Notes: generated from the letters alone by a model not told the origin. A stretch of DNA of 64,000 nt from a bacterium (GCA_043821725.1 JBDRCM010000006.1:38287-102286), one strand, 5' to 3'. Positions 17,005 through 64,000 are shown, counted from the stretch's first letter. Made by a program: numbers and translations.

Positions 17005-17038
17005 AAATTGAACTGAATTTTTTGTAAACCTATAATTT

Positions 17039-18622: not shown

Positions 18623-18629
18623 ATATTAT

Positions 18630-19810: not shown

Positions 19811-19826
19811 ATTATTTTGCTAATAA

Positions 19827-20089: not shown

Positions 20090-20090
20090 A

Positions 20091-20759: not shown

Positions 20760-20870
20760 ATTTTGGCTAAAATTACGATAATATTATATCACAGAGATTT
20801 ATTTCTCGCAACCATTCATTAAAAAATCCGGCCAATAACCGGATCTTAAATATAATGACAAATTATTTTT

Positions 20871-22145: not shown

Positions 22146-22211
22146 AAACGTTTATTTCACCCCGCACCAGGAAGCAACAAACTTTGGCTTGTGGATGAAG
22201 GTGCAGAGCCG

Positions 22212-22691: not shown

Positions 22692-22701
22692 ATTGTTTAC
22701 G

Positions 22702-23268: not shown

Positions 23269-23293
23269 ATTTTAGTGTTGTGTGATGAAAAAA

Positions 23294-23668: not shown

Positions 23669-23682
23669 AATTATTCTTCATT

Positions 23683-24258
23683 TTACTCTCCTTTTGAAGC
23701 GGTTTTTCCCGCCTTGCGCCTTATTTGCTCGTCAATATATTTAATCCCCTTGCCTTTGTATGGCTCTGGCTTTCTTATTTTTCTTATATTAGCGGCAACC
23801 TCTCCGACTAACTGTTTGTCAATGCCTTCAATGGTGATTTGATTTTTTTCCACTGAATACTGAATACGATCATTTGCTTTAACTTCAACCGGATGCGAAT
23901 AGCCGACCTCCAATATTAAATCATTACCTTTCATTGCGGCTTTATATCCAACGCCGTTAATTTCAAGCTGTTTTTTAAATCCTTCGCTCACTCCTTTAAT
24001 CATATTACCAAGTATGCTGGAATAAGTGCCCCACAAAGATTTCTGCTGTTTGTCACTTTCATCAGCAATCTTGACTGTTGCGCCTTCCTGCTCAACAATA
24101 ATGGAAACATCGGGATGTATGGCTTGTTTTAATTCACCTTTTGGGCCTTTAACGATAATCAAGCCGTCCTGAACTGCAACAGTTACGCCGTTTGGAATTT
24201 CTCTTATTATTTTTCCTATTCTGGACATATTAATAGATTTCACAAATAATTTCGCCAC
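23683..24258 (-). CDS. rplF: 50S ribosomal protein L6
   Basis: MSRIGKIIREIPNGVTVAVQDGLIIVKGPKGEL...GVGYKAAMKGNDLILEVGYSHPV. Confidence 0.9.
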   Translation of the reverse strand: MAKLFVKSINMSRIGKIIREIPNGVTVAVQDGLIIVKGPKGELKQAIHPDVSIIVEQEGATVKIADESDKQQKSLWGTYSSILGNMIKGVSEGFKKQLEINGVGYKAAMKGNDLILEVGYSHPVEVKANDRIQYSVEKNQITIEGIDKQLVGEVAANIRKIRKPEPYKGKGIKYIDEQIRRKAGKTASKGE

Positions 24259-24622
24259 CCATTTTCATCTTCCTGGCCTCTTGATTGGTCATAAGTCCTT
24301 TAGGCGTTGATATAATTGATATTCCAATTCCGCTCAGTACTTGCTTGATCTCGTCATTTTTAACATAAACACGCCTGCCCGGTTTGCTTATTCTCTTGAT
24401 ATGAGAAACTGCCGGCTCCTTATTGTTATATTTTAGAGTAACCAATAAATATGGGTGTGTTGCATCATTTTTCTTTTCCACATTTTTAAGATAACCATTG
24501 CCGACCAATATATCTGCGATAGATTTTTTAATTTTGGAAAAAGGTATGCAAACTTCGCGCTTGTTTATCATGGAAGCATTTCTGACTCTTGTTAGCATGT
24601 CCGCGATTGGGTCGGTCATCAT
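24230..24622 (-). CDS. rpsH: 30S ribosomal protein S8
   Basis: MMTDPIADMLTRVRNASMINKREVCIPFSKIKKSIADILVGNGYL. Confidence 0.9.
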   Translation of the reverse strand: MMTDPIADMLTRVRNASMINKREVCIPFSKIKKSIADILVGNGYLKNVEKKNDATHPYLLVTLKYNNKEPAVSHIKRISKPGRRVYVKNDEIKQVLSGIGISIISTPKGLMTNQEARKMKMGGEIICEIY

Positions 24623-24659
24623 ATTTTATTTTCTTTTTTTATATTTAATTATTTGATAT

Positions 24660-24848
24660 TTACCAGCTTGATTTTCTTATGCCGGGCAATCTGCCTTCAT
24701 TCGCCATTTCCCTAAAACAGATGCGGCAAATGCCGAACTTTCTAATAAAAGCTCTGGCACGGCCACACTTCCAACACCGTCTCACGATTCTGGTTGAATA
24801 TTTTGGTTTTTTATCAATTGACTTAGAAATTTTCGCTTTAGTAGCCAT
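24660..24848 (-). CDS. rpsN: 30S ribosomal protein S14 type Z (zinc-binding, 62 aa)
   Basis: [62 protein letters not shown]. The start is set at the ATG at 24848; the 102-aa ORF in the track is an upstream read-through. Confidence 0.9.
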
Positions 24849-24858
24849 AAAATATTTT

Positions 24859-25401
24859 CTATTTTTTAAACGGAAAACCGAGCATTGCCAGCAATTTTCT
24901 TCCTTCATCAGCATTAGATGCTGTCGTGCATATAGCAACTTCAAGCCCGTGTATTTTGTCAACTTCATCAGCTCTTATTTCCGGAAAAGACAGATGTTCT
25001 TTCATTCCCAAAGTATAGTTGCCGACCTTGTCAAAACTGTTTGGTGAAATTCCGCGAAAATCTCTTACTCGCGGTAAAGTCAAACATAAAAATTTTTCTA
25101 GAAAATCATACATCCTTTTGCCCCTTAATGTAACCATCACTCCAATTTCCATTCCTTGCCTTACTTTAAAATTTGATATGGCTTTTTTGGCTTTAGTGCG
25201 AATTGGCTTCTGGCCTGTGATTTTTGTTAATGTACTTTCAACATTTTCAATATATCCGGATTCCTTTAAAAATCTGCCTACTCCAACATTTAGTACTACT
25301 TTATTTATTTTAGGCACTTGCATAATGTTGGACAGCTTTAATTCGGCCTTTAGCTTAGGAACGATTACTTTTTTGTATTGTTTATACAAATTATTTTCCA
25401 T
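24859..25401 (-). CDS. rplE: 50S ribosomal protein L5
   Basis: [22 protein letters not shown]...[11 protein letters not shown]. Confidence 0.9.
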
Positions 25402-36325: not shown

Positions 36326-38929
36326 ATGAAATTACAAAAATTAAAATATCTGGCAAAAATTTTAATCCCCTGTGTGATGCTATGGTGTGCAAGCATAAGC
36401 GCCCTCCCCATACAAACAGCACAAGCAAAACAAACTTACGGCAGTCCTGTAGCATGCACTTTGTTAAAAGCCGGCGATAATGTAAAAGTGAACGAACTGA
36501 ACAAGCCGGCAATATGGAATATTGGTGAGGATGGATTGTTAAGGCCATACCCGGACGGCAACATTTTCAAAAGCTGGTTTAGCAATGAAAAATATTCAGG
36601 CCATTACAAACTTATTACGGAAAGTTGTATAAACACATACAACACAGCCACAAACTTTCCAATTTATGTTAATTTTAGGCCTGCTTCATATGTCATAAAA
36701 AGAATGTATTATGACCAGCTTTATGTTGTTCTTCCAAATAATACAAAAGCGCCCATAACATGGCAGGCCGCTGAAGCACTTTATGGGAAAAAATTCAAAG
36801 TAATGGAAGTTAAATTGTATTTATGGGACAACTATTATAATGATTCCTCTGAAATATCTGGCTCTGACCCCATGCCTCATGCCGGAAGCATAGTAAAAAA
36901 AGACAATAAAAAATATTATGTAAATGAAAATGGCACGCTTAGTGAAATAAATACCAATGCCTTTATACAAAATGAATTTAAAGAGCAATTCGCGCGCCAG
37001 CTGTCCAACACATACTCTTCTTCTGTATCATTCGGAACTTCAATCTCAAATAAAATTGAAACTATTGTAAGTAAAACGCAAAACAAAAATATAACAACCA
37101 ATCCTGTCTCTTCCAATTCATCCTCAGGAGCAACTTCATCCAATTCAACAAGCTCGGGAAGCTCTGCATCTTCAGGAACAGGAACAAACGCTCCTTCAAC
37201 AAACACCGGCTCAACAAGCAGTGGCTCTTCAAGCACAGGGTCATCTTCAAGCAACACCAATTCAACCGGCAGTAGCACTACCGGCAGTGGCACTTCAACA
37301 GGAAGTTCAACCAACACAACCGGAAGCCAAACAACATCAACCAACATTTCAACTGGAACCGGTTCAACTGGAACGGGAACGGGCTCATCCTCAACAGGAT
37401 CATCAAGTTCAGGAAGTGGAACCACATATTATGTGCGCACAGATGGAGGTAGTGCCAGTCAATGCAATGGACTTTCCAACTCCGCATACCCGGGCACAGG
37501 CACCAACCAAAACTGCGCTTGGAAGCATCCGTTTGTAGCGCTTCCACCGGAAGGCACAGCGCGAATTTCAGGCGGGGATACTTTAATGATAGCAAACGGA
37601 TCTTACAAAATGGGATATGGAGCGTCTGTCGGAGCTGAAAACTGCAGTGAATACTGGCCATGGGACTGCCACATGCCCGCTATACCTTCAGGCACAAGTT
37701 CTGCAAATAAAACCAGAATACTTGGAGAATCATGGGATAGCGGATGCTCTACAAAACCACAGCTTTACGGCGCTGAAAGGTCATATATGATTTTTGACTT
37801 GCGAGGCACTAATAATATTGAAATGCAGTGTTTGGAAATAACAGACAGGTCAGCTTGCGTTGAATTCCACAGCGGAGGCAACGCGTGCAATAGAGACAAC
37901 TACCCGTATGGCAATTGGGCATCAGTCGGGATATGGGCTGAAGATTCATCAAACGGTCTTTTGAAAAATATTGATGTGCACGGACTTGCAGGCCGTGGAT
38001 TGATGGCAGGCCGACTGACCGACTGGACAATTGAAGACACAAAAATTCAAGGAAACGGATGGGCCGGCTGGGACGGAGATATTGACGGCAGTGATTCCAA
38101 CAGCGGAACGATTACTCTAACGCGCGTTAATATTGATTGGAATGGATGCGGAGAAACATACCCAGGAAGACTGCCAACCGGTTGTTGGGGACAAAGCGCC
38201 GGAGGATATGGCGACGGACTAGGAACAGGCGAAACAGGAGGAAATTGGATAATACAGGATTCAACATTTTTGCATAATACTTCAGACGGACTTGATCTGT
38301 TGTACCACAGAAGCGGAGGTACAATTACCATCAACAGAGTTCATGCCGAGGGCAATGCAGGCAATCAAGTAAAAACAACAGGAAACGCTCAAATCACTGA
38401 CAGCGTGATAGTTGGCAATTGCGCGTATTTTGAAGGCAAATCATTCACGCACAATGTTGATGCCTGCAGAGCGCTTGGTAATGCTGTATCATTAAATCTT
38501 ACAGGCGCAACCACTCCGGCATTATTCTATAACAATTCCGTTTACAGCCAAGGAGACGGGCTTTTGCTTGTTGATGGAGGAGGAACAATTAAAGCGCGCA
38601 ACAATATTTTTTACGCGGGAGTTGATTACTGGCAAAATTATGAAAATTCATTTTACTTCTATACTGAAAGCAACACTACACTGGATGGCGACTATAATCT
38701 GGTATATAACGCCAAGGACAACAGCAATTACTGCGCCACAGGTTCTCATAATTTATGCACCTCAAATCCTCAATTTAATTCAACATCTGCAAACAGTTTT
38801 AATTTAAGATTGAACGCGACAAGCCCGGCCATTGATGCGGGCACGACAGCTATCACAACAATTGATTTTACAGGCGCAAGCAGGACAAAAGGAAGTTCAC
38901 CTGATATGGGAGCTTATGAAATTAATTAA
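36326..38929 (+). CDS. large secreted protein: N-terminal ~230-aa domain, Ser/Thr/Gly-rich linker, and a C-terminal ~480-aa right-handed parallel beta-helix (pectin-lyase-fold) domain ending DMGAYE
   Basis: Signal peptide (ILIPCVMLWCASISALPIQTAQA). The linker runs 37080..37430 (NSSSGATSSNSTSSGSS...). Beta-helix rungs show repeated N/D/G motifs (GNGWAGWDGDIDGSDSNSG, NNSVYSQGDGLLLVDGGG). It is a paralogue of the next gene. Confidence 0.55.
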   Translation: MKLQKLKYLAKILIPCVMLWCASISALPIQTAQAKQTYGSPVACTLLKAGDNVKVNELNKPAIWNIGEDGLLRPYPDGNIFKSWFSNEKYSGHYKLITESCINTYNTATNFPIYVNFRPASYVIKRMYYDQLYVVLPNNTKAPITWQAAEALYGKKFKVMEVKLYLWDNYYNDSSEISGSDPMPHAGSIVKKDNKKYYVNENGTLSEINTNAFIQNEFKEQFARQLSNTYSSSVSFGTSISNKIETIVSKTQNKNITTNPVSSNSSSGATSSNSTSSGSSASSGTGTNAPSTNTGSTSSGSSSTGSSSSNTNSTGSSTTGSGTSTGSSTNTTGSQTTSTNISTGTGSTGTGTGSSSTGSSSSGSGTTYYVRTDGGSASQCNGLSNSAYPGTGTNQNCAWKHPFVALPPEGTARISGGDTLMIANGSYKMGYGASVGAENCSEYWPWDCHMPAIPSGTSSANKTRILGESWDSGCSTKPQLYGAERSYMIFDLRGTNNIEMQCLEITDRSACVEFHSGGNACNRDNYPYGNWASVGIWAEDSSNGLLKNIDVHGLAGRGLMAGRLTDWTIEDTKIQGNGWAGWDGDIDGSDSNSGTITLTRVNIDWNGCGETYPGRLPTGCWGQSAGGYGDGLGTGETGGNWIIQDSTFLHNTSDGLDLLYHRSGGTITINRVHAEGNAGNQVKTTGNAQITDSVIVGNCAYFEGKSFTHNVDACRALGNAVSLNLTGATTPALFYNNSVYSQGDGLLLVDGGGTIKARNNIFYAGVDYWQNYENSFYFYTESNTTLDGDYNLVYNAKDNSNYCATGSHNLCTSNPQFNSTSANSFNLRLNATSPAIDAGTTAITTIDFTGASRTKGSSPDMGAYEIN

Positions 38930-38963: not shown

Positions 38964-41564
38964 ATGACCCCAACAATCAAAAAAATAACTTTTTTAAGTT
39001 CGCTTGTGATGGTTTTAATTACAGCGCTTATACTTGCAAAATATCTTCCGGCAAGTCCGGCTATTTCAGCGGACAGTTCTTGCCCCGCTCTCAATCTGGG
39101 TGACTTAATAAAAGTAAACGGTGACAGCAAAACAGTATATACTCTCAATCCCAACAACGAACTAGTGTACTTTCCAAATATAAATGTATTAAGAACTTGG
39201 GAATATAGCCCGACAAATTATGTAACAATAGGCGCGGACTGCTTGGAATCGTTTCCCGTGCCAACCGGCCAATCAGCAGTTATACAACGCGCAGGTACAT
39301 ATATTGTCAAACGCCAATACGGCAATGAACTTCGCGCTGTTCTTCCAGGCGGAATTCTATCAACAATAACACCTGAAGCGGCGCGCGTTCTTTATGGAAA
39401 CAAAAAAGGTGAATATGTTGTGCTTGCAATCAATCACTATATATGGCCAAACTACCTAACCACCGGACAACCAATCAACGCGCTGGAAGAAAGTGATGTG
39501 CGGTTGCATCCGGGAATGTTGGCTTATGTAAAAGGAAGATCATATTATGTTGATACAAGCAATGTATTGCATGAAATAACTGCTGAAGGGATAAGAGCTA
39601 ATAACTTTCAAACTCGTTTTAGACGCGGATTTTTAGAAAATGTCATAAAAGATATGACAATGGGCAGTAAAATAAACAGAGCCCTTCCTCATTTGCTTGA
39701 TATGACCCAGCGCACAACTGAAAATTATGATCTAACTCCGCCAATGCCAACTCTAACGGGAGCGGCATCAACAAATACAGTACGCGTAAACTGGAAGGCT
39801 TACGCCGGATCCGGCTTTAAAAAATATTATATTGTCAGATCTGAAACAAACACAAATCCAAAATATCCGACTGACGCTGTAATTTCCTCATCAACGCGCA
39901 TTAACTTTATTAATTATACTGACTTGAATCTGCCTGATGACTTCACATACCATTACAACTTATGCGTTGAGCAAGCAAGCAATGTTATTGTGTGCTCAGA
40001 ACCAATTACAGTTTCTCAAAGTCCTATAATACCGCCACCAACAACAAATGGAACGGTTTACTATATCCGAACGGATGGTGGTAATGCCAGCCAATGTGAT
40101 GGTTTGGAAAACACTGCATACCCGGGCACAGGCACCAACCAAAACTGCGCTTGGAAGCATCCGTTTGTAGCGCTTCCACCGGAAGGCACAGCGCGAATTT
40201 CAGGCGGGGATACTTTAATGATAGCAAACGGATCTTACAAAATGGGATATGGCGCCTCTGCAGGAGATGAAGGATGTGCAAGCGCATATTCTTATGACTG
40301 CATTATGGCTCCAATACCGTCCGGACCTGATGCCAGCCACAAGACCCTTATTCTTGGAGAAAACTGGAACACAGGATGTTCAAGCAAGCCACAGCTTTGG
40401 GGTTCAGGCAGGCCTTGGGCAATTCTTGATATGAATAATAAAAGCAACATTGAATTGCAGTGTTTGGAAATAACAGACAGGTCATCTTGCGTTGAATTCC
40501 ACAGCGGAGGTAACTCATGCAATAGAGACAGCGCGCCTTTTGGCGACTGGGCATCAACCGGATTGCGCGCTTCCGGTTCAAGCAATGTGCTGTTAAAGAA
40601 TTTGGATATTCATGGACTGGCGCACACAGGGATTTATGCCGGCCGACTAACCAACTGGACAATTGAAGATACAAAAATTCAAGGCAATGGCTGGGTTGGA
40701 TGGGACGGAGATGTTGACGGCAATGATTCAAACAGCGGAACAACCACTTTCAAACGCGTTAATATTGATTGGAATGGATGCGGAGAAACATACCCGGGAA
40801 GACTGCCAACCGGTTGCTGGGGACAAAGCGCCGGCGGATATGGAGACGGACTTGGAACAGGAGCCACAGCAGGCAACTGGCTAATTGAGGACTCAACATT
40901 TTTGCACAATACTTCTGATGGGCTTGATCTGCTATACCACAGAGGCGGAGGCAAAATTACCATCAGGCGCGTCCATGCTGAAGGCAATGCAGGCAACCAA
41001 ATTAAAACAAATGGCAATGCTGAAATAACAGACAGCGTAATAGTTGGCAATTGCGGATATTTTCAAGGAAAATCATTTACCCATAATGTTGATGCTTGCA
41101 GGGCGCTTGGAAATGCCATGTCAGTAAATATGGAGGGATCTACCAGCCCAATACTAATCTACAACAATTCAATTTACAGTGAAGGCGATTGCGCCTTAAT
41201 AAGCGAAGGCGGATCAAACACAATTACATCAAGAAATAATATATATTATGCGGGCACTGATTATTGGCAACCGTTTGAAAAATCCTGCTTATTCTATACC
41301 GGCGCTAACGCAAGATTTGATACTGACTATGATATTGCGTTTCAAACCAAAGACAGCAATAATTATTGTGCACTAGGAAGCCATAATCTTTGCAATACAG
41401 ATCCAAAATTCGCTTCAATTGAGCCAACATCATTTGATTTGCGCTTAAAGGATTCCAGCCCAGGAATCAATAGAGGAACAACGCCTATCACAACAATTGA
41501 TTTTATGGGCGACAACAGGACAAAAGGAAGTACAACTGACATTGGCGCGTATGAAATGAAATAG
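38964..41564 (+). CDS. paralogous large secreted beta-helix protein (N-terminal domain, FN3-like insert, C-terminal beta-helix ending DIGAYE)
   Basis: The C-terminal ~480 aa are roughly 75-80% identical to the upstream paralogue and include a 135-bp stretch of 100% DNA identity (40117..40251 = 37486..37620). An FN3-like segment (VRVNWKAYAGSGFKKYYIVRSE) replaces the S/T/G linker. Confidence 0.55.
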   Translation: MTPTIKKITFLSSLVMVLITALILAKYLPASPAISADSSCPALNLGDLIKVNGDSKTVYTLNPNNELVYFPNINVLRTWEYSPTNYVTIGADCLESFPVPTGQSAVIQRAGTYIVKRQYGNELRAVLPGGILSTITPEAARVLYGNKKGEYVVLAINHYIWPNYLTTGQPINALEESDVRLHPGMLAYVKGRSYYVDTSNVLHEITAEGIRANNFQTRFRRGFLENVIKDMTMGSKINRALPHLLDMTQRTTENYDLTPPMPTLTGAASTNTVRVNWKAYAGSGFKKYYIVRSETNTNPKYPTDAVISSSTRINFINYTDLNLPDDFTYHYNLCVEQASNVIVCSEPITVSQSPIIPPPTTNGTVYYIRTDGGNASQCDGLENTAYPGTGTNQNCAWKHPFVALPPEGTARISGGDTLMIANGSYKMGYGASAGDEGCASAYSYDCIMAPIPSGPDASHKTLILGENWNTGCSSKPQLWGSGRPWAILDMNNKSNIELQCLEITDRSSCVEFHSGGNSCNRDSAPFGDWASTGLRASGSSNVLLKNLDIHGLAHTGIYAGRLTNWTIEDTKIQGNGWVGWDGDVDGNDSNSGTTTFKRVNIDWNGCGETYPGRLPTGCWGQSAGGYGDGLGTGATAGNWLIEDSTFLHNTSDGLDLLYHRGGGKITIRRVHAEGNAGNQIKTNGNAEITDSVIVGNCGYFQGKSFTHNVDACRALGNAMSVNMEGSTSPILIYNNSIYSEGDCALISEGGSNTITSRNNIYYAGTDYWQPFEKSCLFYTGANARFDTDYDIAFQTKDSNNYCALGSHNLCNTDPKFASIEPTSFDLRLKDSSPGINRGTTPITTIDFMGDNRTKGSTTDIGAYEMK

Positions 41565-45182: not shown

Positions 45183-45866
45183 ATGGACAATATAGAATTA
45201 GACAAGTTGGTTTCTGAATTGCAAATATCAAAAGATCAAATATTGCGTGAGGAAGCAGAAATGTTATTTTTAGATCAGCTTGGAAAAAATAGAATATCTT
45301 CAAAACTGGTTTTTTATGGTGGAACTGCTTTGCGGTTAGCATATAATTCCCCCCGTTTCTCTGAAGACATAGATTTACTAATGATTGGCAATGTATCACT
45401 ATCAGAGCTTAAAATTTTTTTGAACACAATTCTTAAAAAGAACGATAATTGGAAGTTGATTGATATAAAGAACAAGCGCCAGATATTATTTGCCTTGATA
45501 AATATCAAAGATGAAAAATTAAAACATAATTTTTCAATTAAGATAGAGATTCATAAACCCAAGAAAAAAATAGATGTTGAATATAATTTGGCCTCAATCC
45601 AGAGCCCAACAAGTATAGCTCAACCCCTGTTATTAGTACCGAGCATAGAAGCAATGAAAGAATTAAAAATAGCAACAATTAAAGACAAAAAAAAAGCGCG
45701 AGATATATTTGATTTATGGTTCATCTTCCAAAAAATGCGAGAACCCTTTGTTATAGGGCAAAAAGTTAAATACAAAGAAAATGAGTTTAAAAATGAATTA
45801 CAAGTTTTTTTACCCAAAAAATATTATCCGCTAGTAAAACAATTGTATGAACAAGTTAGTGAGTAG
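45183..45866 (+). CDS. abiEii: AbiEii/AbiGii-family nucleotidyltransferase toxin (DUF1814)
   Basis: LVFYGGTALRLAYNSPRFSEDIDLLMIGN is the hallmark AbiEii motif. 227 aa. Confidence 0.7.
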   Translation: MDNIELDKLVSELQISKDQILREEAEMLFLDQLGKNRISSKLVFYGGTALRLAYNSPRFSEDIDLLMIGNVSLSELKIFLNTILKKNDNWKLIDIKNKRQILFALINIKDEKLKHNFSIKIEIHKPKKKIDVEYNLASIQSPTSIAQPLLLVPSIEAMKELKIATIKDKKKARDIFDLWFIFQKMREPFVIGQKVKYKENEFKNELQVFLPKKYYPLVKQLYEQVSE

Positions 45867-46422
45867 AATAAAAAGGATACCGAGAATAACCTTTAATTAT
45901 AATGACTTAAAAAAAATTACCGATCTTGAGGACGGTAGTTTGCGAGTCGCTGTTTTTCGGTTGATAAAAAGCGGAGCAATAACAAGAATAAGCAAAGGTA
46001 TTTATACTACTGATATTTCTAAAGTTGATTGGGAAATCTTTGCTGTCCAGAATTATGAACCCAGCTACCTTTCTTTTGAATGGGTGTTGGGCAAATATGG
46101 TGTGTTGAGTCAAAAGCCATATAATTTAACTTTGGCGACTAGTAGACAAACTAAGATAATTAATACAGTTCATAATATTATTTCCTATCATCATCTACAA
46201 ACAAAAATGTATTGGGGTTATGTAAAAAAGAATGGGTATCTGGAAGCAGACTTGGAAAAGGCGTGGCTAGATTTGGCATATTTATCTTTAAATGGCTATA
46301 CAAAGTTTGATTGCCAAGAAATGAATTTATCTTTGCTGAATAAAAATAAAATAAAAAAATATTTAAAAAAAATAGGGATAAAAAAATTATCCAATTTGGT
46401 TTTAAGCACAGGAATGATTTAG
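45847..46422 (+). CDS. abiEi: AbiEi-family antitoxin-like winged-HTH protein
   Basis: RVAVFRLIKSGAITRISKGIYT matches the AbiEi N-terminal wHTH. It overlaps abiEii by 20 nt. The gene order (toxin first) is inverted relative to canonical AbiE. Confidence 0.5.
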   Translation: MNKLVSRIKRIPRITFNYNDLKKITDLEDGSLRVAVFRLIKSGAITRISKGIYTTDISKVDWEIFAVQNYEPSYLSFEWVLGKYGVLSQKPYNLTLATSRQTKIINTVHNIISYHHLQTKMYWGYVKKNGYLEADLEKAWLDLAYLSLNGYTKFDCQEMNLSLLNKNKIKKYLKKIGIKKLSNLVLSTGMI

Positions 46423-55655: not shown

Positions 55656-56060
55656 ACGCTTTGTATTTGTTGTGCTTGATTAAAAAGTATATTGATGAAG
55701 TATAACTTAAGTGTACACACTTATTTTATAGCTGCCAAGTATTAACAACGTATAAATATACACATATAATATGCGGCTTCCACCAACCGACGGATTAGAT
55801 CACAAATTTCGTCGCAGAGTTGCAAAAAATGGATTTATTGAAAATATTTTCCAGTCCCATTAATTAATCCCCACCACAAAAACCCAATATTGAATACTAA
55901 TTTATTGTTTTTTTAAGTTATGCTGTGATATAATATGACTTATGGAAAAGCTCAAAAAAAAGAGCAGATTTTGAATTATACTTCAACATCCGATTTTATC
56001 TTTTTTCTAATTATTTTTTTAAAAAACCATTTTTAATCTAACAAAATATTCATCCTATTT

Positions 56061-58385
56061 ATGCAAAATACCCACATAATCAAAATGCTGGAAACAGCGC
56101 AATACGCAACATTAATAGCAACAATAATAGCGGTTCCCCTTTTAATTGATAGATCTCTTATAAATTATTTTGTCTTAATCAAGCAATATTTGTTTGTAAG
56201 CTTAATTCTGCTCAACTTGATTTTATTTAGCATTAAAACGATAATATCTCGCCAGCTGAATTACTCCCAATCACTTTTAGATGTTCCGCTCGCGCTTTTG
56301 CTTGGATTTATGTTTCTGTCATCAATATTTTCTTCTAATCAGCAAACCAGCTTTCTTGGAAGGAACGATATTTTTTTGATGAATTTTACTTTTTTCGCGT
56401 TCTTAATAATTTTTTATATTATCGTCGTAAACTGCATTTCAAATTATGAAAAGTGGAAAACAGCCATAATGATATTGGCCGGAGTAGGTGGCATAAGCGC
56501 CTTGTCATTTATACTTACATCTTTTTTCAAATTTCAAATTCCATATATCAATTCAACTTTAAACATTGTGTCTGCCTCAATTACCGGATTTGGAATATGG
56601 CTTGTAGCGATTTTTTTAATCTGCGCCGGACAAATCTTAAAAAAGAACACAAAAATCAACTCAACCGTTTATTACTGGATAGTTATGGCTCTATGCGGAT
56701 GGGGAATTATTCTTATCAGCTATAACGTGCTTTGGTGGCTCCTATTAATTGGAACGTTAATAATATTGCTTATTGGCATAAGCTTTATTAAAGAGGTCAG
56801 AATGTATTTTCTTTCGTTTTTATTCGCCTTAATGGTAGCTGTAGTAATTTTCATTATTATGGGAAGCCCAAAATCACTGCAAGCAAACCTGCCTCTGGAA
56901 ATGTCTCTTGGATTTAAGCCGTCATGGTCAATAACAAGCGAGTCAATATTTGACAATGCTAAAAATTTCATTCTTGGAAGCGGTCCGGGTTCTTTTAGCG
57001 CTGATTTTTCAAAATTTCGCACAACAGAATTCAACTATAACCAACTGGCGTGGTCTTTGCGCTTTAGCCAGCCATTTAATACATACCTCGCGATTTTAAG
57101 CGAGCATGGAATAGCAACCGGCTTGGCATTTGTGCTTGTTATTTTGCTTGCCATTGGCTCTATTTTTAATTCAAACAGGAAAAAAAGATTTGGATTGGAA
57201 AATTTTGCCATTATGACCGACAAAACCAACCAAGCCAGCCAGATTGATATTTATCTTCTGCTTTCGGTTTTCCTTATTTTGCTTGGCGGAATGACAATCA
57301 ACTTTTTCAGCCCAAGTTTATGGATGATGTGGTGGCTATTACTTGGATTGCTCATTTCAGGTCTGCACTTAAATGGAAACAAGATCATTAAATCCAGATC
57401 ACTTGTCTTGCAAAATGTTCCTCAATATAATTTAGCTTTTTCTTTCAGCATAATAGTAATAACAGGACTTGTAATAATGCTCGGAATTCTTGGAACAAGA
57501 TTTTATCTTGCTGAATTCGCGTATGCTCAAGCCGTGCATGAAACAGAATATCCTAAAATTGACGCCAAACTGCAAAAAGCAATCAGCTTAAGATCCAACT
57601 ATGATTCCTATCATATGGCTCAAGCCAGAAGCTATTTAAATCAAGCGGCTAATGATGCAAAGCAAGGAGCCAAAGAGGAAGATATTGCCGCGCTGGTTGC
57701 GTCAGCTGTAAATGAAGCTAAAAGAGCAACTGAGCTATCTCCTAATACAGTATCAGCTTGGGAAAACTTGGCCACAATGTATGAAAACGCATCAATGCTT
57801 GTTCCTGAAGCAAATGAATGGGCTGTTAAATCATTAGAAAAAGCAATTGAACTTGAACCAACAAACGCGATGTTGCACTGGCAGTTGGCAAATAATTATT
57901 ATTTTGCGAATAATTTACCCAAAGCTGAAACAAATTTTAAAAAAGCCATTGATTTAAAAAACGATTACTTGCAGGCATATTTGGGATTGGCCCAGGTTTA
58001 TGAAGCCAATAATAAAATAGATGAAGCAATAAATACACTTGACTTAATAACCCGCAACAGTCCGAGAGACACAGGCGTTCTATTCAACTATGGCCGTCTG
58101 TTATATAACCGCAATCGCGCGGGTGATCGCGTTAAAGCAGAGCGCTTGTGGCTATTAGTAATACAAGACCAGCCAAAATATTCCAATGCACTCTACAGCT
58201 TGGGACTTCTCTATGAAACACAAGGCGAAAAGCAAAAGGCATTATATTATTACTACAAAGTCAGGGATTTGAATCCAACAAATCAAGAAATTAAAAAAAA
58301 GATAGACAATCTAAACTATGTTGTAAAGCCAGCTCCAGTTTTTCCGACCAGCACAAGCACTACCTCCAGTTTTGGCAATAATTAA
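56061..58385 (+). CDS. O-antigen ligase/polymerase-like (Wzy_C) polytopic membrane protein fused to C-terminal TPR repeats
   Basis: About 12 TM helices, with an extracellular loop carrying the GSGPGSF motif. The C-terminal ~270 aa contain TPR-like repeats (AWENLATMYENAS, AMLHWQLANNYYFANNLPKAETNFKKAIDL, AYLGLAQVYEANNKIDEA). Confidence 0.55.
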   Translation: MQNTHIIKMLETAQYATLIATIIAVPLLIDRSLINYFVLIKQYLFVSLILLNLILFSIKTIISRQLNYSQSLLDVPLALLLGFMFLSSIFSSNQQTSFLGRNDIFLMNFTFFAFLIIFYIIVVNCISNYEKWKTAIMILAGVGGISALSFILTSFFKFQIPYINSTLNIVSASITGFGIWLVAIFLICAGQILKKNTKINSTVYYWIVMALCGWGIILISYNVLWWLLLIGTLIILLIGISFIKEVRMYFLSFLFALMVAVVIFIIMGSPKSLQANLPLEMSLGFKPSWSITSESIFDNAKNFILGSGPGSFSADFSKFRTTEFNYNQLAWSLRFSQPFNTYLAILSEHGIATGLAFVLVILLAIGSIFNSNRKKRFGLENFAIMTDKTNQASQIDIYLLLSVFLILLGGMTINFFSPSLWMMWWLLLGLLISGLHLNGNKIIKSRSLVLQNVPQYNLAFSFSIIVITGLVIMLGILGTRFYLAEFAYAQAVHETEYPKIDAKLQKAISLRSNYDSYHMAQARSYLNQAANDAKQGAKEEDIAALVASAVNEAKRATELSPNTVSAWENLATMYENASMLVPEANEWAVKSLEKAIELEPTNAMLHWQLANNYYFANNLPKAETNFKKAIDLKNDYLQAYLGLAQVYEANNKIDEAINTLDLITRNSPRDTGVLFNYGRLLYNRNRAGDRVKAERLWLLVIQDQPKYSNALYSLGLLYETQGEKQKALYYYYKVRDLNPTNQEIKKKIDNLNYVVKPAPVFPTSTSTTSSFGNN

Positions 58386-58407: not shown

Positions 58408-59097
58408 ATGACAACAGAATTGATTGTCAGAAAAAAAGCAAGCAAAAAAATATTTAAAAATAACGTTGTAATTTATCCTTTTTCAACGGTTTTTTTGTGT
58501 TTGCTCATCTGTCTTGTTTTTGTTCAACCGGTTTTTTGCTTAATGTCATCAACAAATTACACCATATTTGCAGATGATTTTCATTCTGGATTGGTTGCTA
58601 CTTCAACAAATTATCGACTAGAAGGCACTGCTGGTGAATCGCCTGTGGGATCAACCACTGGAGCAACTTACCAAATATTAGGAGGTTATCAATCAATGGA
58701 CAGATCGTCATTGAGCATGTCCATAACCGACTCATCAATAAATCTGGGGGACTTGAGCACAACTGCTGTGAGCTCTGCAAATACCACTGTAACCATTACA
58801 ACTGATTCTTCAAGCGGATACACTCTTTCAATTTCAAATGTTTCAGGAAGTACGATCACATCTGTTGCTGATGGAGCTGTAACAGCCGGACAAACAGAAT
58901 ATGGCTTTTCAGCAAGCGGTAGTCAGTCAATTATTTCCGGAGATGTTTCTGTTTCAGCAAAAGACATATCAACGGCTGTAGCGGCAATTACAAACAGTCA
59001 AACCGTGCTATCTTTTAAGGCATCAGTTGCTTCTTTGGGATCAAGCAGGCAAACATATCAGCAAACAATTACTCTATCGGCCAGCAATAATTTGTGA
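58408..59097 (+). CDS. secreted Ser/Thr-rich hypothetical protein
   Basis: Signal/TM FSTVFLCLLICLVFVQPVFC is followed by a beta-rich S/T/G-rich region. The start is uncertain (58372 or 58408). Confidence 0.4.
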   Translation: MTTELIVRKKASKKIFKNNVVIYPFSTVFLCLLICLVFVQPVFCLMSSTNYTIFADDFHSGLVATSTNYRLEGTAGESPVGSTTGATYQILGGYQSMDRSSLSMSITDSSINLGDLSTTAVSSANTTVTITTDSSSGYTLSISNVSGSTITSVADGAVTAGQTEYGFSASGSQSIISGDVSVSAKDISTAVAAITNSQTVLSFKASVASLGSSRQTYQQTITLSASNNL

Positions 59098-59984
59098 AAA
59101 AAACTGTCTTACAAATCTCTATCATAATAATCTCGCTGATTGCTCTCGTTAATAACGCGAGCGCTTTTAGCATAACTCCAAGCAAGCTGGGAATATCAAT
59201 AGATCCCGGACAATCAGCCAATTTCTCAATATCTTTGGAAAATACTGAAAAATCCGATCTTGTATTTGAAACAAAAATTTTAAGCGTAAGGCAAAATAAT
59301 GCCGGACGACCTGAATTTCTATCAAATTTTTCAAATACTGAAAAATGGGTGGCTTCTTTAACAAAAAATGAAGTTGTGAAAGCCAATAAGCAAGCGGAAT
59401 TTGATTTTAACTTATCAGTGCCAATTAAAACAGCGCCAGGCACATATTATATTGGAATGGCTTTCCAACCAATGCCAACAGCACAAGCAGACATGGGAAT
59501 TACTCCTCAATTGGTGACTATTTTAGAAGTAAAAGTAAGTGGAACTGCTTATGAAAATCTTGAAATCACAAAATGGGAGTTAAATAAGGGAATTTCAGGA
59601 AAAAATAATTGGGAATTTTGGCTAAATCTTAACAATGCAAGCAATGTTGAAATTTTTGCAAGCTCCACTGTTTCAATCCAAAAGAAAAAAGGGCAGGAAA
59701 TATTTTCCTCTGCAATCAATCTTGGAGGAGTAATTCTGCCGGAAACAGTCAGATTCTTAAAACCTTCAGTTATACTACCGGATAGCATCAATAAATGGCC
59801 GGCAATATATGTTGCTAAAATAAAAATTGAATATGGAAAAACCAGACAAACAATAGAATCTCAAACCGCAATTATTGTCTTGCCGGCGTGGTTTAAAATT
59901 TTAATTATCCTGTTGCTTGTTATTACTTTTTGTATCATTTTTTGGCGCATTTTTCTTAGAAAGAAAATTAACAAGAATAACTAA
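59094..59984 (+). CDS. cell-surface protein with N-terminal signal peptide and C-terminal TM anchor
   Basis: Signal MKKTVLQISIIIISLIALVNNASA, a ~230-aa beta-rich ectodomain, then a C-terminal helix WFKILIILLLVITFCIIFW and a basic tail RKKINKNN. The topology resembles DUF916/DUF3324-type surface proteins. Confidence 0.4.
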   Translation: MKKTVLQISIIIISLIALVNNASAFSITPSKLGISIDPGQSANFSISLENTEKSDLVFETKILSVRQNNAGRPEFLSNFSNTEKWVASLTKNEVVKANKQAEFDFNLSVPIKTAPGTYYIGMAFQPMPTAQADMGITPQLVTILEVKVSGTAYENLEITKWELNKGISGKNNWEFWLNLNNASNVEIFASSTVSIQKKKGQEIFSSAINLGGVILPETVRFLKPSVILPDSINKWPAIYVAKIKIEYGKTRQTIESQTAIIVLPAWFKILIILLLVITFCIIFWRIFLRKKINKNN

Positions 59985-60010
59985 AGGATACAAAACATTC
60001 TTATCCACAC

Positions 60011-60035
60011 ATCTCGCTAAAAAACGAGATTTTTT
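60011..60035 (+). terminator. intrinsic terminator after the 59094..59984 gene
   Basis: ATCTCG-CTAAAAAA-CGAGAT followed by TTTTTT. Confidence 0.5.
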
Positions 60036-60045
60036 AATAAAAAAA

Positions 60046-60054
60046 TGGTATAAT
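60046..60054 (+). promoter_or_regulatory. extended -10 promoter element (TGGTATAAT) upstream of the giant surface-protein gene
   Basis: TG-n-TATAAT at 60046..60054, 34 nt upstream of the ATG at 60088. Confidence 0.4.
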
Positions 60055-60087
60055 ACATAAAATTTAATTCAAAGCGACCAAACAACG

Positions 60088-63000
60088 ATGAGAAATACCC
60101 GATTGCAAGAAAGTAGGATTTCAAAACCTCAAATTTTTGGTATTTTGAGTTTGTTTTTGTGTACAATTTTTGTTATTTTTGCCATTGCTTTTGTGCAAGC
60201 ACAAAGAGCTGAAGCAGCTATCCCCCCAGGCCTAATTACATATCAAGGAAAACTGTTGGACAATGGCTCTCTTGCCACCACCACTAAGAGCGCAACATTT
60301 ACTTTGCACGACGCTCTAACAGGAGGCAACACTCTGCACACAACTGCGACAAGCGTTGTGCCTTCTGACGGATTATTTTCAATTGATATTTCAGCGACAT
60401 CAACAATCTTTAGAGATAATTCAGCTGTATATTTGCAGGTACAAATTGATGGCGAAACATTAAGCCCTCGTAAGCGCATTACTGCCTCTCCATATTCTTT
60501 TAACTCGCGTTATCTTGATGGAGTGGCACCTGACACGGTTTCCACTTCGCAATATATTCCTCTTTCAGATACCAATGGATTTTTTACATTTACTAGCGCC
60601 ACCATTACAACAGCCACTGTGAGCAATCTTACTGTAAGCGGGCAGATGACAATGAGCAATGTGAGTACAACTAATTTAACAGTTTCAGGAAATCTTGCAG
60701 TAAGCGGCACAACTACTTTGGCAACAACCACAATAACAAGTTCAACAATCACAAACTTAATTGTGGGAACTTCAATCCAGCTTCCAAATGATTCAATTGA
60801 CGTTGACGCAATGGCGCCGAATTCAGTTGGTTCGTCAGAGCTCATATCATCAGGCGTTGTTGCTGAAATTTACGGCTCATCAACTCATTCCGGAAGAATT
60901 ACAGTTGATGAGGACGGAAGAATCACTTCAGCATCTTCGCAATTGATTTCCATAAATGCCAACCAAGTGAGCGCCGGAATATTGGCAACAGCAAGAGGCG
61001 GAACAGGCACTTCAACGCTTGGATCCAATGGCTCAATGGTTTATTCCAACGGTACAACTTACTCTTTTGTATCTCCGGGAACATCCGGACAAATCTTGCT
61101 ATCAAACGGCGCTGCATCACCCAGCTGGACAAACACTTCCACTCTAGGTCTTGCAGCTGCTTCTCATGATCATGACAGCGCTTATGTAAATGTAAGCGGT
61201 GATATAATGACCGGCGCGTTAAGCATAAACAACACTTTGGGAGTATCAGGCACAACTACTTTGGCAACCAGTTCAGGCCGAGTCGGAATAGGTACTACCT
61301 CCCCAAGCTCAAGCTTGCATATAAACGAAGGCGGATTATTAATAACAGGCACGACTGGCGCCACTCCTGTTTCAGGAGCAGGAACGCGGTTGATGTGGAT
61401 ACCTGCTAAAAGCGCGTTTAGAGCAGGAATAGTAACGGGTGCTCAATGGGATGATGCAAATATTGGAAACTATTCGATGGCTTTTGGTTATGATTCAATG
61501 GCAACAGGCACTCAGACTTATGCTTTTGGTAGTGAAGCTGTTGCAGGAGGTGAAGCATCATATGCTTTTGGACCAAACGCGGTTGTAAATGGCGCCGGTT
61601 CATTTGCAATTGGACAGTCAGCAAATGTAACGGGTTATAATTCTTATGCGATTGGACGTGAAGGAACAGTAAACGGCAATTATTCACAACTATTTACATT
61701 AAATTCAGCCGGCCATACTCTTTCTGATTCAAATACATTATCCATTATGGGTGGGGAAGTCGGAATAGGTACTACAACGCCCATAGCTGAATTGGATATA
61801 TATGGAAACATAGCTTTAACAGGAGGATCGCCTAGATACATCAATTTTAATACCTCAACAGGATCCGATGGATATGGCTTAAGAGATAACAGCGGAACAA
61901 TGCAATATAAAAATCTAAGCGGCAGCTGGCTTAATTTAAGCAATGCCGGTTCATATTGGACTTTGAACGGATCAGATATTTACTACAACAACGGAAATGT
62001 GGGCATCGGCACAACCACCCCATCATACTTATTAGATGTTGCAGGCGATGTCCGCATAGGCACATCAACTTCTTCCACAATAATAATACGCGGATTGGTT
62101 GGCTCTGATATTATACCTACAACCGACGCCACCTACGCCCTAGGTTCATCTGCTTTACGCTGGTCAAATGTTTATTCTGCAACAGGCACATTTGGCAATT
62201 CCACAATAATCGGCACCAATAGCATTACCGCTGACACAGATTCACTATGGAGCACCACGAACAGCTCTAATTTATCAATAATGAGCTCAGCTAATTTAAC
62301 AATATCATCACAAGGAGAGATGATGTTTGGAACGCAAGGAAGTGAAAAAATGAGAATAGCTTCATCTACAGGTTATGTTGGAATAAATAATACAGATCCA
62401 CAACAGCTTTTACATATTAGCGGAGTTACACCGGCAATACTGGTGCAAACAACTAACAGTACCACTGACTCCAGCATCAATTTCGCGGACACCGAAGGCG
62501 GAGACACATGGCAAATAGGAAAGAAAGGATCAAACGACGGAGGTGTAAATAACTATTTGTTTTTCTCCTATGCCGGAGAAAAAGTGGTTGTAAATCCTGA
62601 CGGGCAAATGGGAATAGGCACTTTAGCTCCGCAAACCCTTTTGCATTTAAGCGAGGAGGATGGAGGAGGAGCTGACTCTTCAGCACCCTTAACGCTTTTA
62701 ACTCTCACGCATACGGCTGCTTCCACTTCATCCGCTGGCATTGGGGCTCAAATAAATTTTGAACTTGAACATGAGGGAGGCGCAACTGTGACAGGAGCGG
62801 CAATAACCGGAGAACTATCAGATGCAAGCTCTACTGTGCCTTTAGGCGCATTATTATTTAAAACCAACGATGCAAATCCAATGCTTGGATTACAGGAAAG
62901 AGCTAGAATAAATTCTAATGGATATATGGGTATAGGCACTGATGATCCTGGCGCGCGTCTTCAAATAGAGAATCAAGACGTATCAAACGCGCAATTAAGA

Positions 63001-64000
63001 ATATCACAAAATGCTTCCAATTATGTTGACTTTAAAATGAGCACAACTTCGCTATACATCAATACTTCAGTACCGACCACTACTTTAAACAGCGTATATT
63101 TCTATCTAACTAACAACACAAACACATCAACTTTGGTGATTGAAAGTAATGTTGACAGCGGCCCGTTCGGCTCGGAAATCCGTCTAATAGACAACCACAG
63201 TGAGGGATGGAGAATATTCAGTGATTCACAAGACCATCACTTATTTTTTAGAAATCAAAATCAAACAGTCACTACCACGCTATTTTTAGATAATAATACA
63301 GGATATGTAGGTATTGGAGCGGCATCAGCTTCTTCATCACTATTTGTCAACGGACTTGCTGGAGGCACAGATACATGGTACTCATCTTCTGACATGCGCC
63401 TTAAAACCAATGTTGTATCAATTGAAAATGCTTTGGAAAAAGTTAAACAGTTGCGTGGAGTACAATTTGATTGGATTGATGACACAAATAGATCCAAAGG
63501 AAAACAAATTGGCTTTATTGCACAAGAAACCTTGCCGATTGTACCTGAAGTTGTAAATCAAATAGGAGATATGTATAGCATTAAATATGGCGCCTTAACA
63601 GCTCTGCTTGCTGAAGCGATAAAGGAACAGCAAATAAAAATTGAACAGCTGGAAGGCATGCTTACATTAAATGCTTCTTCCACAAGCGTTGGCCCAATAT
63701 CATATATTGGCGACAACATAAATCTGAATGGAAATATAATACTCAATACTGGAGGAATTATTGGATTTAATAATGCCTGGCAAATTGATACGTCAGGAAA
63801 TTTAATCCGCCGTCTGGCTACTAACAAAGGAGTAAAAGAGGTTTATGGATTGCAATCAACATCAAAAAGCGAAATCGTCATATCTGGAACCAGCCAACTT
63901 CAAGGCGGACAAAAGAAAATTAAACTTGATGATTTGGACGTTGAAATTATAGATACAAGCATTCCTTTAAAAGTGAGTATTACCATGGCAGGACCTTCGG
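60088..64000 (+). CDS. giant fibrous surface protein (>1304 aa, 3' end beyond window): signal anchor, long Thr/Ser/Gly-rich beta-repeat shaft with recurring VGIGTTTP motifs, and a phage-tail-fibre/endosialidase-type intramolecular chaperone (peptidase S74-like) domain
   Basis: Manual translation of frame 1 from the ATG at 60088 finds no stop through 64000; it is absent from the ORF track only because it is open-ended. The N-terminus is MRNTRLQESRISKPQIFGILSLFLCTIFVIFAIAFVQA. Repeats include GRVGIGTTSPSSSLH, GEVGIGTTTPIAELD, GNVGIGTTTPSYLLD and GQMGIGTLAPQTLLH. Residues ~1100-1190 (63395..63660) read SSDMRLKTNVVSIENALEKVKQLRGVQFDWIDDTNRSKGKQIGFIAQETLPIVPEVV...YSIKYGALTALLAEAIKEQQIKIEQLEG. This matches the S-D-x-R-x-K...G.IAQE...Y.....L..E.IKEL pattern of the S74 auto-processing chaperone domain. 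Confidence 0.7.
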   Translation, partial: MRNTRLQESRISKPQIFGILSLFLCTIFVIFAIAFVQAQRAEAAIPPGLITYQGKLLDNGSLATTTKSATFTLHDALTGGNTLHTTATSVVPSDGLFSIDISATSTIFRDNSAVYLQVQIDGETLSPRKRITASPYSFNSRYLDGVAPDTVSTSQYIPLSDTNGFFTFTSATITTATVSNLTVSGQMTMSNVSTTNLTVSGNLAVSGTTTLATTTITSSTITNLIVGTSIQLPNDSIDVDAMAPNSVGSSELISSGVVAEIYGSSTHSGRITVDEDGRITSASSQLISINANQVSAGILATARGGTGTSTLGSNGSMVYSNGTTYSFVSPGTSGQILLSNGAASPSWTNTSTLGLAAASHDHDSAYVNVSGDIMTGALSINNTLGVSGTTTLATSSGRVGIGTTSPSSSLHINEGGLLITGTTGATPVSGAGTRLMWIPAKSAFRAGIVTGAQWDDANIGNYSMAFGYDSMATGTQTYAFGSEAVAGGEASYAFGPNAVVNGAGSFAIGQSANVTGYNSYAIGREGTVNGNYSQLFTLNSAGHTLSDSNTLSIMGGEVGIGTTTPIAELDIYGNIALTGGSPRYINFNTSTGSDGYGLRDNSGTMQYKNLSGSWLNLSNAGSYWTLNGSDIYYNNGNVGIGTTTPSYLLDVAGDVRIGTSTSSTIIIRGLVGSDIIPTTDATYALGSSALRWSNVYSATGTFGNSTIIGTNSITADTDSLWSTTNSSNLSIMSSANLTISSQGEMMFGTQGSEKMRIASSTGYVGINNTDPQQLLHISGVTPAILVQTTNSTTDSSINFADTEGGDTWQIGKKGSNDGGVNNYLFFSYAGEKVVVNPDGQMGIGTLAPQTLLHLSEEDGGGADSSAPLTLLTLTHTAASTSSAGIGAQINFELEHEGGATVTGAAITGELSDASSTVPLGALLFKTNDANPMLGLQERARINSNGYMGIGTDDPGARLQIENQDVSNAQLRISQNASNYVDFKMSTTSLYINTSVPTTTLNSVYFYLTNNTNTSTLVIESNVDSGPFGSEIRLIDNHSEGWRIFSDSQDHHLFFRNQNQTVTTTLFLDNNTGYVGIGAASASSSLFVNGLAGGTDTWYSSSDMRLKTNVVSIENALEKVKQLRGVQFDWIDDTNRSKGKQIGFIAQETLPIVPEVVNQIGDMYSIKYGALTALLAEAIKEQQIKIEQLEGMLTLNASSTSVGPISYIGDNINLNGNIILNTGGIIGFNNAWQIDTSGNLIRRLATNKGVKEVYGLQSTSKSEIVISGTSQLQGGQKKIKLDDLDVEIIDTSIPLKVSITMAGPS

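Follow-up and report, generated by a model that had tools for sequence, protein, structure and literature searches.

At the 3′ end of a 64,000-nt stretch of bacterial DNA (GCA_043821725.1 JBDRCM010000006.1:38287-102286, in the following the window) a giant tail-fibre-like protein is encoded on the plus strand, downstream of three genes of the same strand that are here named ORF2, ORF3 and ORF4 (ORF, open reading frame). With a probability of roughly 0.6 this block represents a chromosomal cell-surface fibre locus composed of the tail-fibre-like giant, a protein pair of PamT-like and PapD/WxLIP-like type, and a membrane protein with tetratricopeptide repeats (TPR). By analogy with known systems, the giant and its neighbours are best read as a trimeric surface fibre resembling the mosaic adhesive trimer (MAT) fibres of Bdellovibrio, encoded beside a minimal pilin-chaperone module of the Pam/WxL-like kind. 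Bacteria of the candidate phyla radiation (CPR) depend on attachment to other cells and few attachment structures are known for them; the locus is a conserved candidate for one. The first-pass annotation of the window had assumed a CPR-like host, in line with which the relatives bearing a taxon name are Patescibacteria, namely Magasanikbacteria of the Parcubacteria group, and the host is probably a Magasanikbacteria-like member of the Patescibacteria.

Reading frame and modules of the giant protein

From ATG 60088 the plus-strand frame stays open for 1,304 codons up to the window end (giant fibre gene, 60088..64000), as had been described for a frame of more than 1300 codons running off the window. 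A word-indexed search of NCBI returned the identical protein, MFH1789637.1, 'MAG: tail fiber domain-containing protein [bacterium]' (MAG, metagenome-assembled genome), on a 127,915-bp contig. The full protein is thus available, the frame is not truncated by a frameshift, and the stop that had been sought downstream would end at ~64635, ~635 nt beyond the window. The frame had also been called unannotated, which does not hold, as NCBI already names its product a tail fiber domain-containing protein. Counted from NCBI's TTG (60157) the protein comprises 1,492 aa, versus 1,515 aa from ATG 60088; the ATG was preferred because in most relatives the conserved N-terminal domain starts at residue 37-48, as it does from the ATG, and not at residue 15-20.

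For the signal anchor that had been noted, hydropathy showed a hydrophobic segment at aa 16-34 within the leader (aa 1-44; 60088..60219), followed by AEA↓A, likely a signal-peptidase I site. After the leader comes a conserved N-domain (aa 41-205; 60208..60702), the family-defining module of the giant proteins, which had no match in Pfam and none in 50,697 phage genomes. Among the 120 top homologs this domain stands at the extreme N-terminus of 38 (phmmer) to 42 (hidden Markov model, HMM), and it is carried by the giants of the related loci L003, L005, L006, L008 and L010.

The variable shaft (aa 206-1100; 60703..63387) combines YadA-head-like repeats with seven VGIGxxxPxxxL motifs. The repeats (aa ~463-530; nt 61474-61677) score 25.2 bits with YadA_head at a cutoff of 25, a marginal match. 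The recurrence of a GIGT motif in the fibrous region, noted at first sight, is borne out by counting: the pattern [VM]GI[GN]xxx[PA]xxxL occurs in 7 copies, whereas 0.0008 are expected from 5,000 shuffles, at aa 399, 558, 638, 764, 841, 947 and 1074, the last one 27 aa before Ser1101. Tail-fibre families of PHROG align to aa ~830-1192 with a best E-value of 7.5e-28. Taken together, the motifs, which resemble capping loops, and the YadA-head repeats suggest a trimeric fibre.

The S74 module and the region that follows it

The shaft is followed by a predicted self-cleaving S74 intramolecular chaperone module (aa 1101-1192; 63388..63663). PF13884 matches aa 1101-1156 with 62.5 bits (cutoff 22), and SDMRLK at aa 1101-1106 (nt 63388 onward) corresponds to the SDxxxK definition of the Ser-Lys dyad (PMC10769870), here Ser1101/Lys1106. 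The S74-type chaperone that had been placed at 63395 is therefore present, ~7 nt from that position. By tblastn the segment matched 1,650 phage records, mostly annotated tail fibres, at identities of up to 46%. SDxRLK is kept in all homologs that combine S74 with the C-terminal domain described below, and the dyad is therefore probably active.

Unlike in most S74-bearing homologs, this module does not stand at the C-terminal end with a short fragment (~100-150 aa) behind it: 41 of the 54 S74-bearing homologs end within 153 aa of the S74 start, whereas 415 aa follow Ser1101 in the giant. The long stretch past the chaperone core, which had been pointed out as atypical, is indeed so, yet 13 of the 54 homologs are alike in having at least 200 aa. 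Cleavage at Ser1101 would therefore detach a fragment of ~415 aa.

Past Ser1101, the S74 helix extends to ~aa 1192 and is followed by a beta-rich part (aa 1193-1345) and a tail of 170 aa. The beta-rich part is a conserved C-domain (63664..64000, aa 1193-~1345, with the window ending at aa 1304), predicted to be a beta-sandwich of the type of phage tail-fibre and tailspike distal domains. The tail, located outside the window, is acidic and rich in Thr, Ser, Asn, Asp and Gln, and neither a transmembrane (TM) segment nor a sorting motif was detected in it by hydropathy and sequence. The C-domain recurs in 30-34 of the 120 homologs, where it is located near the C-terminus and always has a low-complexity tail of 46-170 aa behind it, and 24-26 of these homologs have the N-domain and the C-domain without S74. 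Judged from this distribution, aa 1193-1345 form an independent conserved domain and not an extended chaperone; its presence also in S74-less relatives explains the long C-terminal extension.

An AlphaFold2 model of the C-domain, computed from 24 sequences with a predicted local distance difference test (pLDDT) score of 80.8, is a beta-sandwich. Its best matches in PDB were Klebsiella phage depolymerases, K1 lyase, LKA1 gp49, AP22 gp53, R2 pyocin fibres and H-type lectins, and in a viral structure library tail, minor-tail and tail-fibre proteins (best E 5.9e-7). By sequence, no match was found in the 50,697 phage genomes, Pfam gave weak FlgD_ig matches only, and a PDB sequence search with the S74/C-terminal segment alone gave no hits. 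As modelled, the extension is the family's own tail-fibre-tip-like module, upstream of which S74 is inserted in a minority of members.

The architectures of the N-domain proteins are in accordance with exchangeable middle parts: phmmer gave 24 of N-C, 4 of N-S74-C, 3 of N-S74 and 7 of N only, and the HMM recount gave 26, 4, 3 and 9, respectively. Many giants without S74 bear LVIVD repeats in its place. By its matches the giant is a mosaic of lineage-specific ends and a module common to phages, because S74 has matches in phages, whereas none of the phage genomes searched matched the N-domain or the domain after S74.

Genes upstream of the giant

ORF3 (58408..59097, plus strand) encodes 229 aa from ATG 58408, with an alternative TTG at 58372, and comprises a leader followed by a Ser/Thr-rich single domain of ~185 aa. 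The description of a small, secreted, Ser/Thr-rich protein agrees with the sequence: the mature part consists to 36% of Ser and Thr and contains neither Trp nor Cys. The NCBIfam model NF058579 (CPR_pilus_PamT) matched ORF3 with E 5.4e-15 and 55.4 bits, under the 240-bit equivalog cutoff; orthologs of ORF3 scored 55-60 bits and one of them also matched CPR_Pam_pilin_C. On these profile matches, ORF3 is classified as a distant PamT-type member of the CPR Pam pilin superfamily and not as an equivalog. An exhaustive HMMER search assigned 390 cluster representatives to the family at E<=1e-3, most of ~210 aa; in some members of 330-400 aa the common part is the C-terminal domain only, as in the two-domain Pam pilins. 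The mature N-terminus MSSxNYxIxAD is conserved, and the family profile had no hits in PDB even at E<=10. Proteins of ~307 aa in L058-L063 (L059 531-1511, L061 80-1000) carry a partly duplicated ORF3 domain, seen as two HMM stretches, and appear by sequence as intermediates between the single- and two-domain forms.

ORF4 (59094..59984, plus strand; 296 aa; MFH1789636.1, locus tag ABH832_01035, directly before MFH1789637.1) starts with a GTG that overlaps the ORF3 stop (GTGA). As first noted, it has an N-terminal leader and a C-terminal anchor, a TM helix at aa ~265-295, and between them two immunoglobulin (Ig)-like beta-sandwich domains of PapD/WxLIP type are predicted. The best structural match of the predicted fold was WxLIP (PDB 9i1y), with a model built from three sequences only. 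The Pfam match to WxLIP_PGBD was under the cutoff, NCBIfam gave no match, and the family profile gave non-significant hits only in PDB. A topology reminiscent of WxL/DUF916 complexes had been suggested for the pair, which applies to the predicted fold of ORF4 and not to ORF3, as the latter lacks Trp. A member of the ORF4 family (E 9e-21) is found in L057, a multi-pilin Pam-like locus, where genes for a 247-aa PamT-like protein, a 348-aa protein with leader and C-terminal TM segment, a protein of 519 aa whose C-terminal domain is ORF3-like, and the 374-aa ORF4-family protein with C-terminal TM segment lie at 2656-7948; this gene set ties the ORF4 family to multi-pilin operons. NCBIfam searches with the neighbour genes of L057 and L058 returned no Pam chaperone names.

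The first gene of the cluster, ORF2 (56061..58385, plus strand; 774 aa), encodes ~12-13 TM segments by hydropathy (aa 1-476) and C-terminal TPR repeats (aa ~545-750), and its orthologs are 45-50% identical. Of the earlier designation as a Wzy-TPR protein the TPR part stands, with TPR families above the Pfam cutoffs. A Wzy or O-antigen ligase assignment was rejected at the sequence and profile level: Wzy_C/O-antigen-ligase families did not match in Pfam at E<=10 in four orthologs, hhalign against Escherichia coli WaaL gave a probability of 0.4%, and two PDB profile searches, including one with the membrane domain, returned nothing relevant. Upstream of ORF2 the best sigma-70-like promoter match (TTAACA-17-TATAAT, 11/12) lies at 55742..55770 on the plus strand. 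It is an agreement with the consensus, and such sites are no more numerous here than expected from shuffling.

Between ORF4 and the giant gene (60011..60054, plus strand), consensus matches indicate a terminator-like hairpin with a T-run (60011-60030 and following) and then an extended -10-like element, TGGTATAAT (60046-60054). From these elements the giant gene may be a transcription unit of its own.

Conservation of the gene order and genomic context

The window and the fetched loci were searched with an HMM for each module. ORF2, ORF3 and ORF4 were collinear in all six loci analysed (window, L001, L003, L005, L006 and L008), and giants with the N-domain were located downstream in five of them (window, L003, L005, L006 with two, and L008), while L001 stops at the contig edge. 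Additionally, a metagenome scan seeded with the ORF3 motif MSS[TD]NY[YT]I yielded 52 more loci; it covers the close ORF3 subfamily, and counts were made on non-redundant loci. Here, the gene directly upstream of the ORF3 homolog was ORF2 in 33 of the 35 cases that could be assessed, the one directly downstream was ORF4 in 29 of 32, and a giant with the N-domain followed on the same strand in 8 of the 10 loci of which 5.5 kb or more could be seen. In 9 metagenome loci the giant came straight after ORF4 and in 8 past intervening genes.

The genes flanking the block encode RmuC, TrmB, ABC-F, YchF, a NUDIX protein, a methyltransferase and type IV pilus proteins, and the rest of the window is of housekeeping character (GyrA, FtsH, S1, EF-G, EF-Tu, tRNAs). 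Neither the window nor 10-kb flanks taken from six related loci showed phage structural or packaging genes such as capsid or terminase, and a scan of IMG/VR contigs found no member of the ORF4 family. Because ORF2-ORF3-ORF4 and the giant recur in dozens of related contigs amid housekeeping genes, the locus is not regarded as a prophage, and the view of the block as conserved and chromosomal is upheld.

Two further proteins that are absent from the window accompany the block in many other loci. The one named m (~340 aa) has a TM segment at the N-terminus, a part rich in Cys and an end resembling dockerin, and the one named B (856-1,182 aa) has CarboxypepD_reg/SdrD_B-like domains and internal TM helices. 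Their gene regions are L001 10948-14673, L005 7176-11004, L006 5738-9524, L008 6868-9930 and L003 16303-19470, and in many metagenome loci both are fused as 'Bm'. Because B follows the giant gene in L003, a B gene probably lies just beyond the window. Between B and the giant, L001 (14732-15100) and L005 (11035-11406) carry a 122-123-aa gene of the 23S-rRNA-intervening-sequence type. In L006 the second giant is split over two frames, 16821-21215 and 21064-25242, with the N-domain in one and S74 and the C-domain in the other, which could be due to a frameshift, a pseudogene or an assembly error.

Comparison with known surface systems

That a chromosomal tail-fibre-like adhesin with an auto-chaperone would be unusual had been overstated. 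MAT fibres of the S74 subgroup, e.g. Bd3182, are chromosomally encoded in Bdellovibrio bacteriovorus (Caulton et al. 2024, PMC10769870), and a protein resembling tail fibres is reported to co-localise consistently with pam operons throughout CPR (preprint by Troman et al. 2026, 10.64898/2026.03.03.709456). MAT fibres consist of a signal peptide, a conserved, beta-rich N-domain of ~130 aa directly behind it, a trimeric shaft with capping loops and S74 with SDxxxK; such capping loops have been described for the S74-type beta-helices of MAT fibres and MyRF, and the surface receptor of MAT fibres is still unknown (PMC10769870). The giant resembles them as a chromosomal, non-phage, putative surface fibre of about 1,000 aa or more, and Bdellovibrio, too, lives on other bacteria. 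By layout, a leader is followed by a conserved N-domain, of 165 aa in the giant. Moreover, its seven motifs are similar to the V-G-(G/N)-x-x-x-P-x-x-x-L capping loops, with a spacing one residue off the printed consensus, and S74 with SDxxxK, mosaic and swappable distal parts, and members with and without S74 are shared. In contrast to MAT fibres, S74 is internal in the giant, with a conserved tip-like domain and then an acidic tail behind it, the host belongs to the CPR, for which the Pam preprint describes the lack of an outer membrane, and is assumed to have none, and the giant gene is linked to a pilin/chaperone-like pair, which has not been reported for MAT fibres.

The Pam pilus system was described for Candidatus Mycosynbacter amalyticus; a truncated Ig fold and the role of a tip pilin are predicted there for the single-domain PamT, and PamC and PamD are chaperones that resemble PapD and FimC and carry a TM helix at the C-terminus (10.64898/2026.03.03.709456). 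Common to this system and the present locus are the CPR-specific occurrence, the match of ORF3 to the PamT model and the tail-fibre-like protein nearby. Compared by description, ORF4 has the architecture of PamC and PamD, i.e. a signal peptide, a PapD-like two-domain fold and a C-terminal TM helix. Differences are that neither two-domain major pilins of the PamA/PamB/PamE type nor a recognisable PamR were found in the window or the close loci; that the flanks are RmuC and YchF and not ATP synthase genes, which are missing from the gene lists of the loci; that the named relatives are Magasanikbacteria of the Parcubacteria group and not Saccharimonadia or Microgenomatia; and that ORF2, B and m have no described Pam counterparts. 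Since the ORF3-family HMM detected one pilin-like gene only, in the 64-kb window as in each close locus, a full pam operon was rejected.

Surface clusters of the WxL/WxLIP type (DUF916-DUF3324-TM) are known from Lactobacillales and Bacillales (Hassan et al. 2023, PMC10599100; PDB 9i1y). As in the present locus, such a cluster consists of a small secreted single-domain protein, a protein with two Ig domains and C-terminal TM segment, and a large multidomain surface protein, and the strand-donating partner role proposed for WxLIP-WxL is the one proposed for the Pam chaperones. The differences concern the mature ORF3, which has no Trp and no WxL match in Pfam, and the phylum. A sharing of domains in the WxL manner was rejected for the giant and ORF3, as hhalign comparisons of the ORF3 family with either the C-domain or the N-domain gave probabilities <1%. 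Since ORF3 is without a WxL motif and has no domain in common with the giant, the locus is not a WxL cluster.

With phage fibres such as the K1F endosialidase (3GW6) and T5 pb1 (4UW8) the giant shares S74, the Ser/Lys motif and a preceding beta-helical region with capping loops. The phage chaperone is terminal and short, however, whereas the giant starts with a Sec leader, has N- and C-modules specific to cells and lies outside any phage context. MyRF shows the same order of an internal S74 and a long C-terminal region, with the capping-loop motif upstream of S74, but MyRF is a membrane-tethered transcription factor and the giant has no TM segment after S74.

Every type of component has a precedent from 2023-2026, namely MAT fibres, Pam pili with a tail-fibre-like neighbour, and WxLIP; on CPR S74 tail fibres a literature search found nothing beyond the Pam preprint (10.64898/2026.03.03.709456). 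What appears to be new is the recurrent order ORF2-ORF3-ORF4-(m)-(B)-giant in a lineage labelled, where a taxon is given at all, as Magasanikbacteria/Patescibacteria, the family of N...C giants whose middle part, either a beta-helix fibre with S74 or an LVIVD propeller, is swappable, the internal S74 followed by a tip-like domain, and the absence of major pilins. The locus thereby extends PamT-type proteins beyond the classes with reported Pam pilins and places S74 internally in a bacterial surface protein. It also offers an idea for how tail-fibre-like adhesins could be anchored on cells, a question left open for the MAT fibres of Bdellovibrio. Known systems are refined by it and none is overturned.

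Proposed mechanism and alternative explanations

For the surface fibre locus proposed here, the analysis established the identities of the domains, the catalytic motif, the folds as predictions, the conserved gene order and the non-phage surroundings, and trimerisation, cleavage, the choice of the cell-proximal end, the link of ORF3 and ORF4 to the fibre, its anchoring and the binding of a target are what we infer. The giant would be exported through Sec and fold as a trimeric fibre, in which a cell-proximal N-domain would be followed by the beta-helical shaft with YadA-like repeats and capping loops and then by S74. By analogy with phage and MAT fibres, S74 would nucleate trimer folding and subsequently cut itself at Ser1101 by means of the Ser1101/Lys1106 dyad. 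As S74 is internal, the lineage-specific tip-like beta-sandwich and the acidic disordered tail would follow it and be released as the ~415-aa fragment. ORF3, with a putative PamT-like pilin fold and an incomplete Ig-type domain, and the membrane-anchored ORF4 would most likely act as a pilin and a strand-donating chaperone or anchor at the cytoplasmic membrane, accompanied by the polytopic TPR protein ORF2. This ORF2-ORF3-ORF4 module would build a base or adaptor displaying the fibre for attachment to a host or substrate.

A more specific version, for which our expectation is low, is that ORF3 and ORF4 are not pilus-building parts and form a docking module: the membrane-fixed ORF4 would hold ORF3 by strand complementation, and the conserved N-terminus of the fibre (mature end AIPPGLITYQGKLL) would in turn donate a strand to ORF3. 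If true, a chaperone-pilin pair would have been repurposed as the anchor of interchangeable tail-fibre-like adhesins, and the 'unknown surface element' bound by MAT-type fibres would have a name. Docking of this kind would also link the WxL/WxLIP proteins of Firmicutes, the Pam pili of CPR and chaperone-usher pili as one strand-complementation family without outer membrane.

Several points weigh against a common fibre locus. All evidence is computational and the source is a MAG of an uncultured bacterium. The N-domain of the giant is likened to that of the Bdellovibrio MAT fibres by layout only; the score of ORF3 is far under the equivalog threshold of PamT and, unlike the Pam pilins, ORF3 has no cysteine in the mature part; and with no major pilin like PamA, PamB or PamE in the window or the close loci, the locus does not correspond to the described Pam pilus. 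An internal S74 with a tip-like domain behind it fits the simple phage model poorly, as cleavage would discard the tip-like domain. The terminator-like hairpin and the promoter-like element part ORF4 from the giant gene. In L010 a giant of the N-C type stands beside YchF and has no ORF2-4 within 10 kb, and in L013 and L024, which have ORF2-4 together with B/m genes, no giant with the N-domain was found within 10 kb; the adjacency of ORF2-4 and the giant is therefore frequent and not obligatory. These separations, together with the varying position of the giant and the missing profile similarity of ORF3 to its N- and C-domains, would also be expected if two independent neighbours were involved, ORF2-4 forming a small Pam-like pilus or tip or a WxL-like wall complex of their own and the giant being a stand-alone adhesin or envelope protein in a common surface-protein island. 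We regard this as rather unlikely, although it deserves serious consideration: the giant is found downstream and on the same strand in most of the loci, both analysed and metagenomic, the Pam preprint reports independently that pam neighbourhoods centre on a tail-fibre-like protein, and lasting linkage in streamlined genomes usually reflects a shared function.

The position of S74 also allows the fibre to be viewed in reverse. In the eukaryotic protein MyRF, an internal S74 frees an N-terminal trimer from a membrane-anchored C-terminal part, and tails rich in P/T/S/E resemble the wall-spanning regions of Gram-positive surface proteins. Correspondingly, the C-domain and the tail of the giant, which are conserved family modules even where S74 is missing, could hold the protein in or at the envelope, and cleavage 415 aa before the C-terminus could release the N-terminal trimeric fibre. 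Such a release switch is improbable, given that the tail has no TM segment or sorting motif, that the predicted fold of the C-domain is that of the distal receptor-binding ends of phage fibres, and that the N-domain, the better conserved module, comes after the leader, the arrangement of MAT fibres, in which it is taken as cell-proximal. An origin as phage cargo, with the giant as the tail fibre of a prophage, a tailocin or a contractile injection system, could account for the phage matches of S74 and of aa ~830-1192 and for the phage-tip-like fold of the C-domain. It is scarcely credible in view of the Sec-type leader, the same housekeeping flanks (RmuC ... YchF) across genomes, the lack of phage structural and packaging genes in the window and the six related flanks, and the absence of the N- and C-domains from the phage genomes and of the ORF4 family from the IMG/VR contigs. 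A chromosomal surface fibre encoded with a pilin-chaperone-like module is thus retained as the preferred reading.

Further genes of the window

Two adjacent ORFs of ~866 aa on the plus strand (36326-38929 and 38964-41564) have a higher G+C content of 0.41-0.44; the second matched Beta_helix only (Pfam, E 1e-7) and the first had no match, and they may be further surface or fibre-like proteins. On the minus strand, 4476-5378 and 5357-6277 encode neighbouring Laminin_G_3 (concanavalin-A-like lectin) proteins, possibly more surface-binding proteins. An AbiEii-type nucleotidyltransferase toxin (Pfam E 2.5e-18) is encoded at 45183-45866 (plus strand) and overlapped by a 191-aa ORF at 45847-46422; the two form a possible type IV toxin-antitoxin pair (45183-46422) just upstream of RmuC. 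Finally, a protein of the GH5 cellulase family is encoded at 14831-16180 (plus strand) amid a housekeeping stretch.

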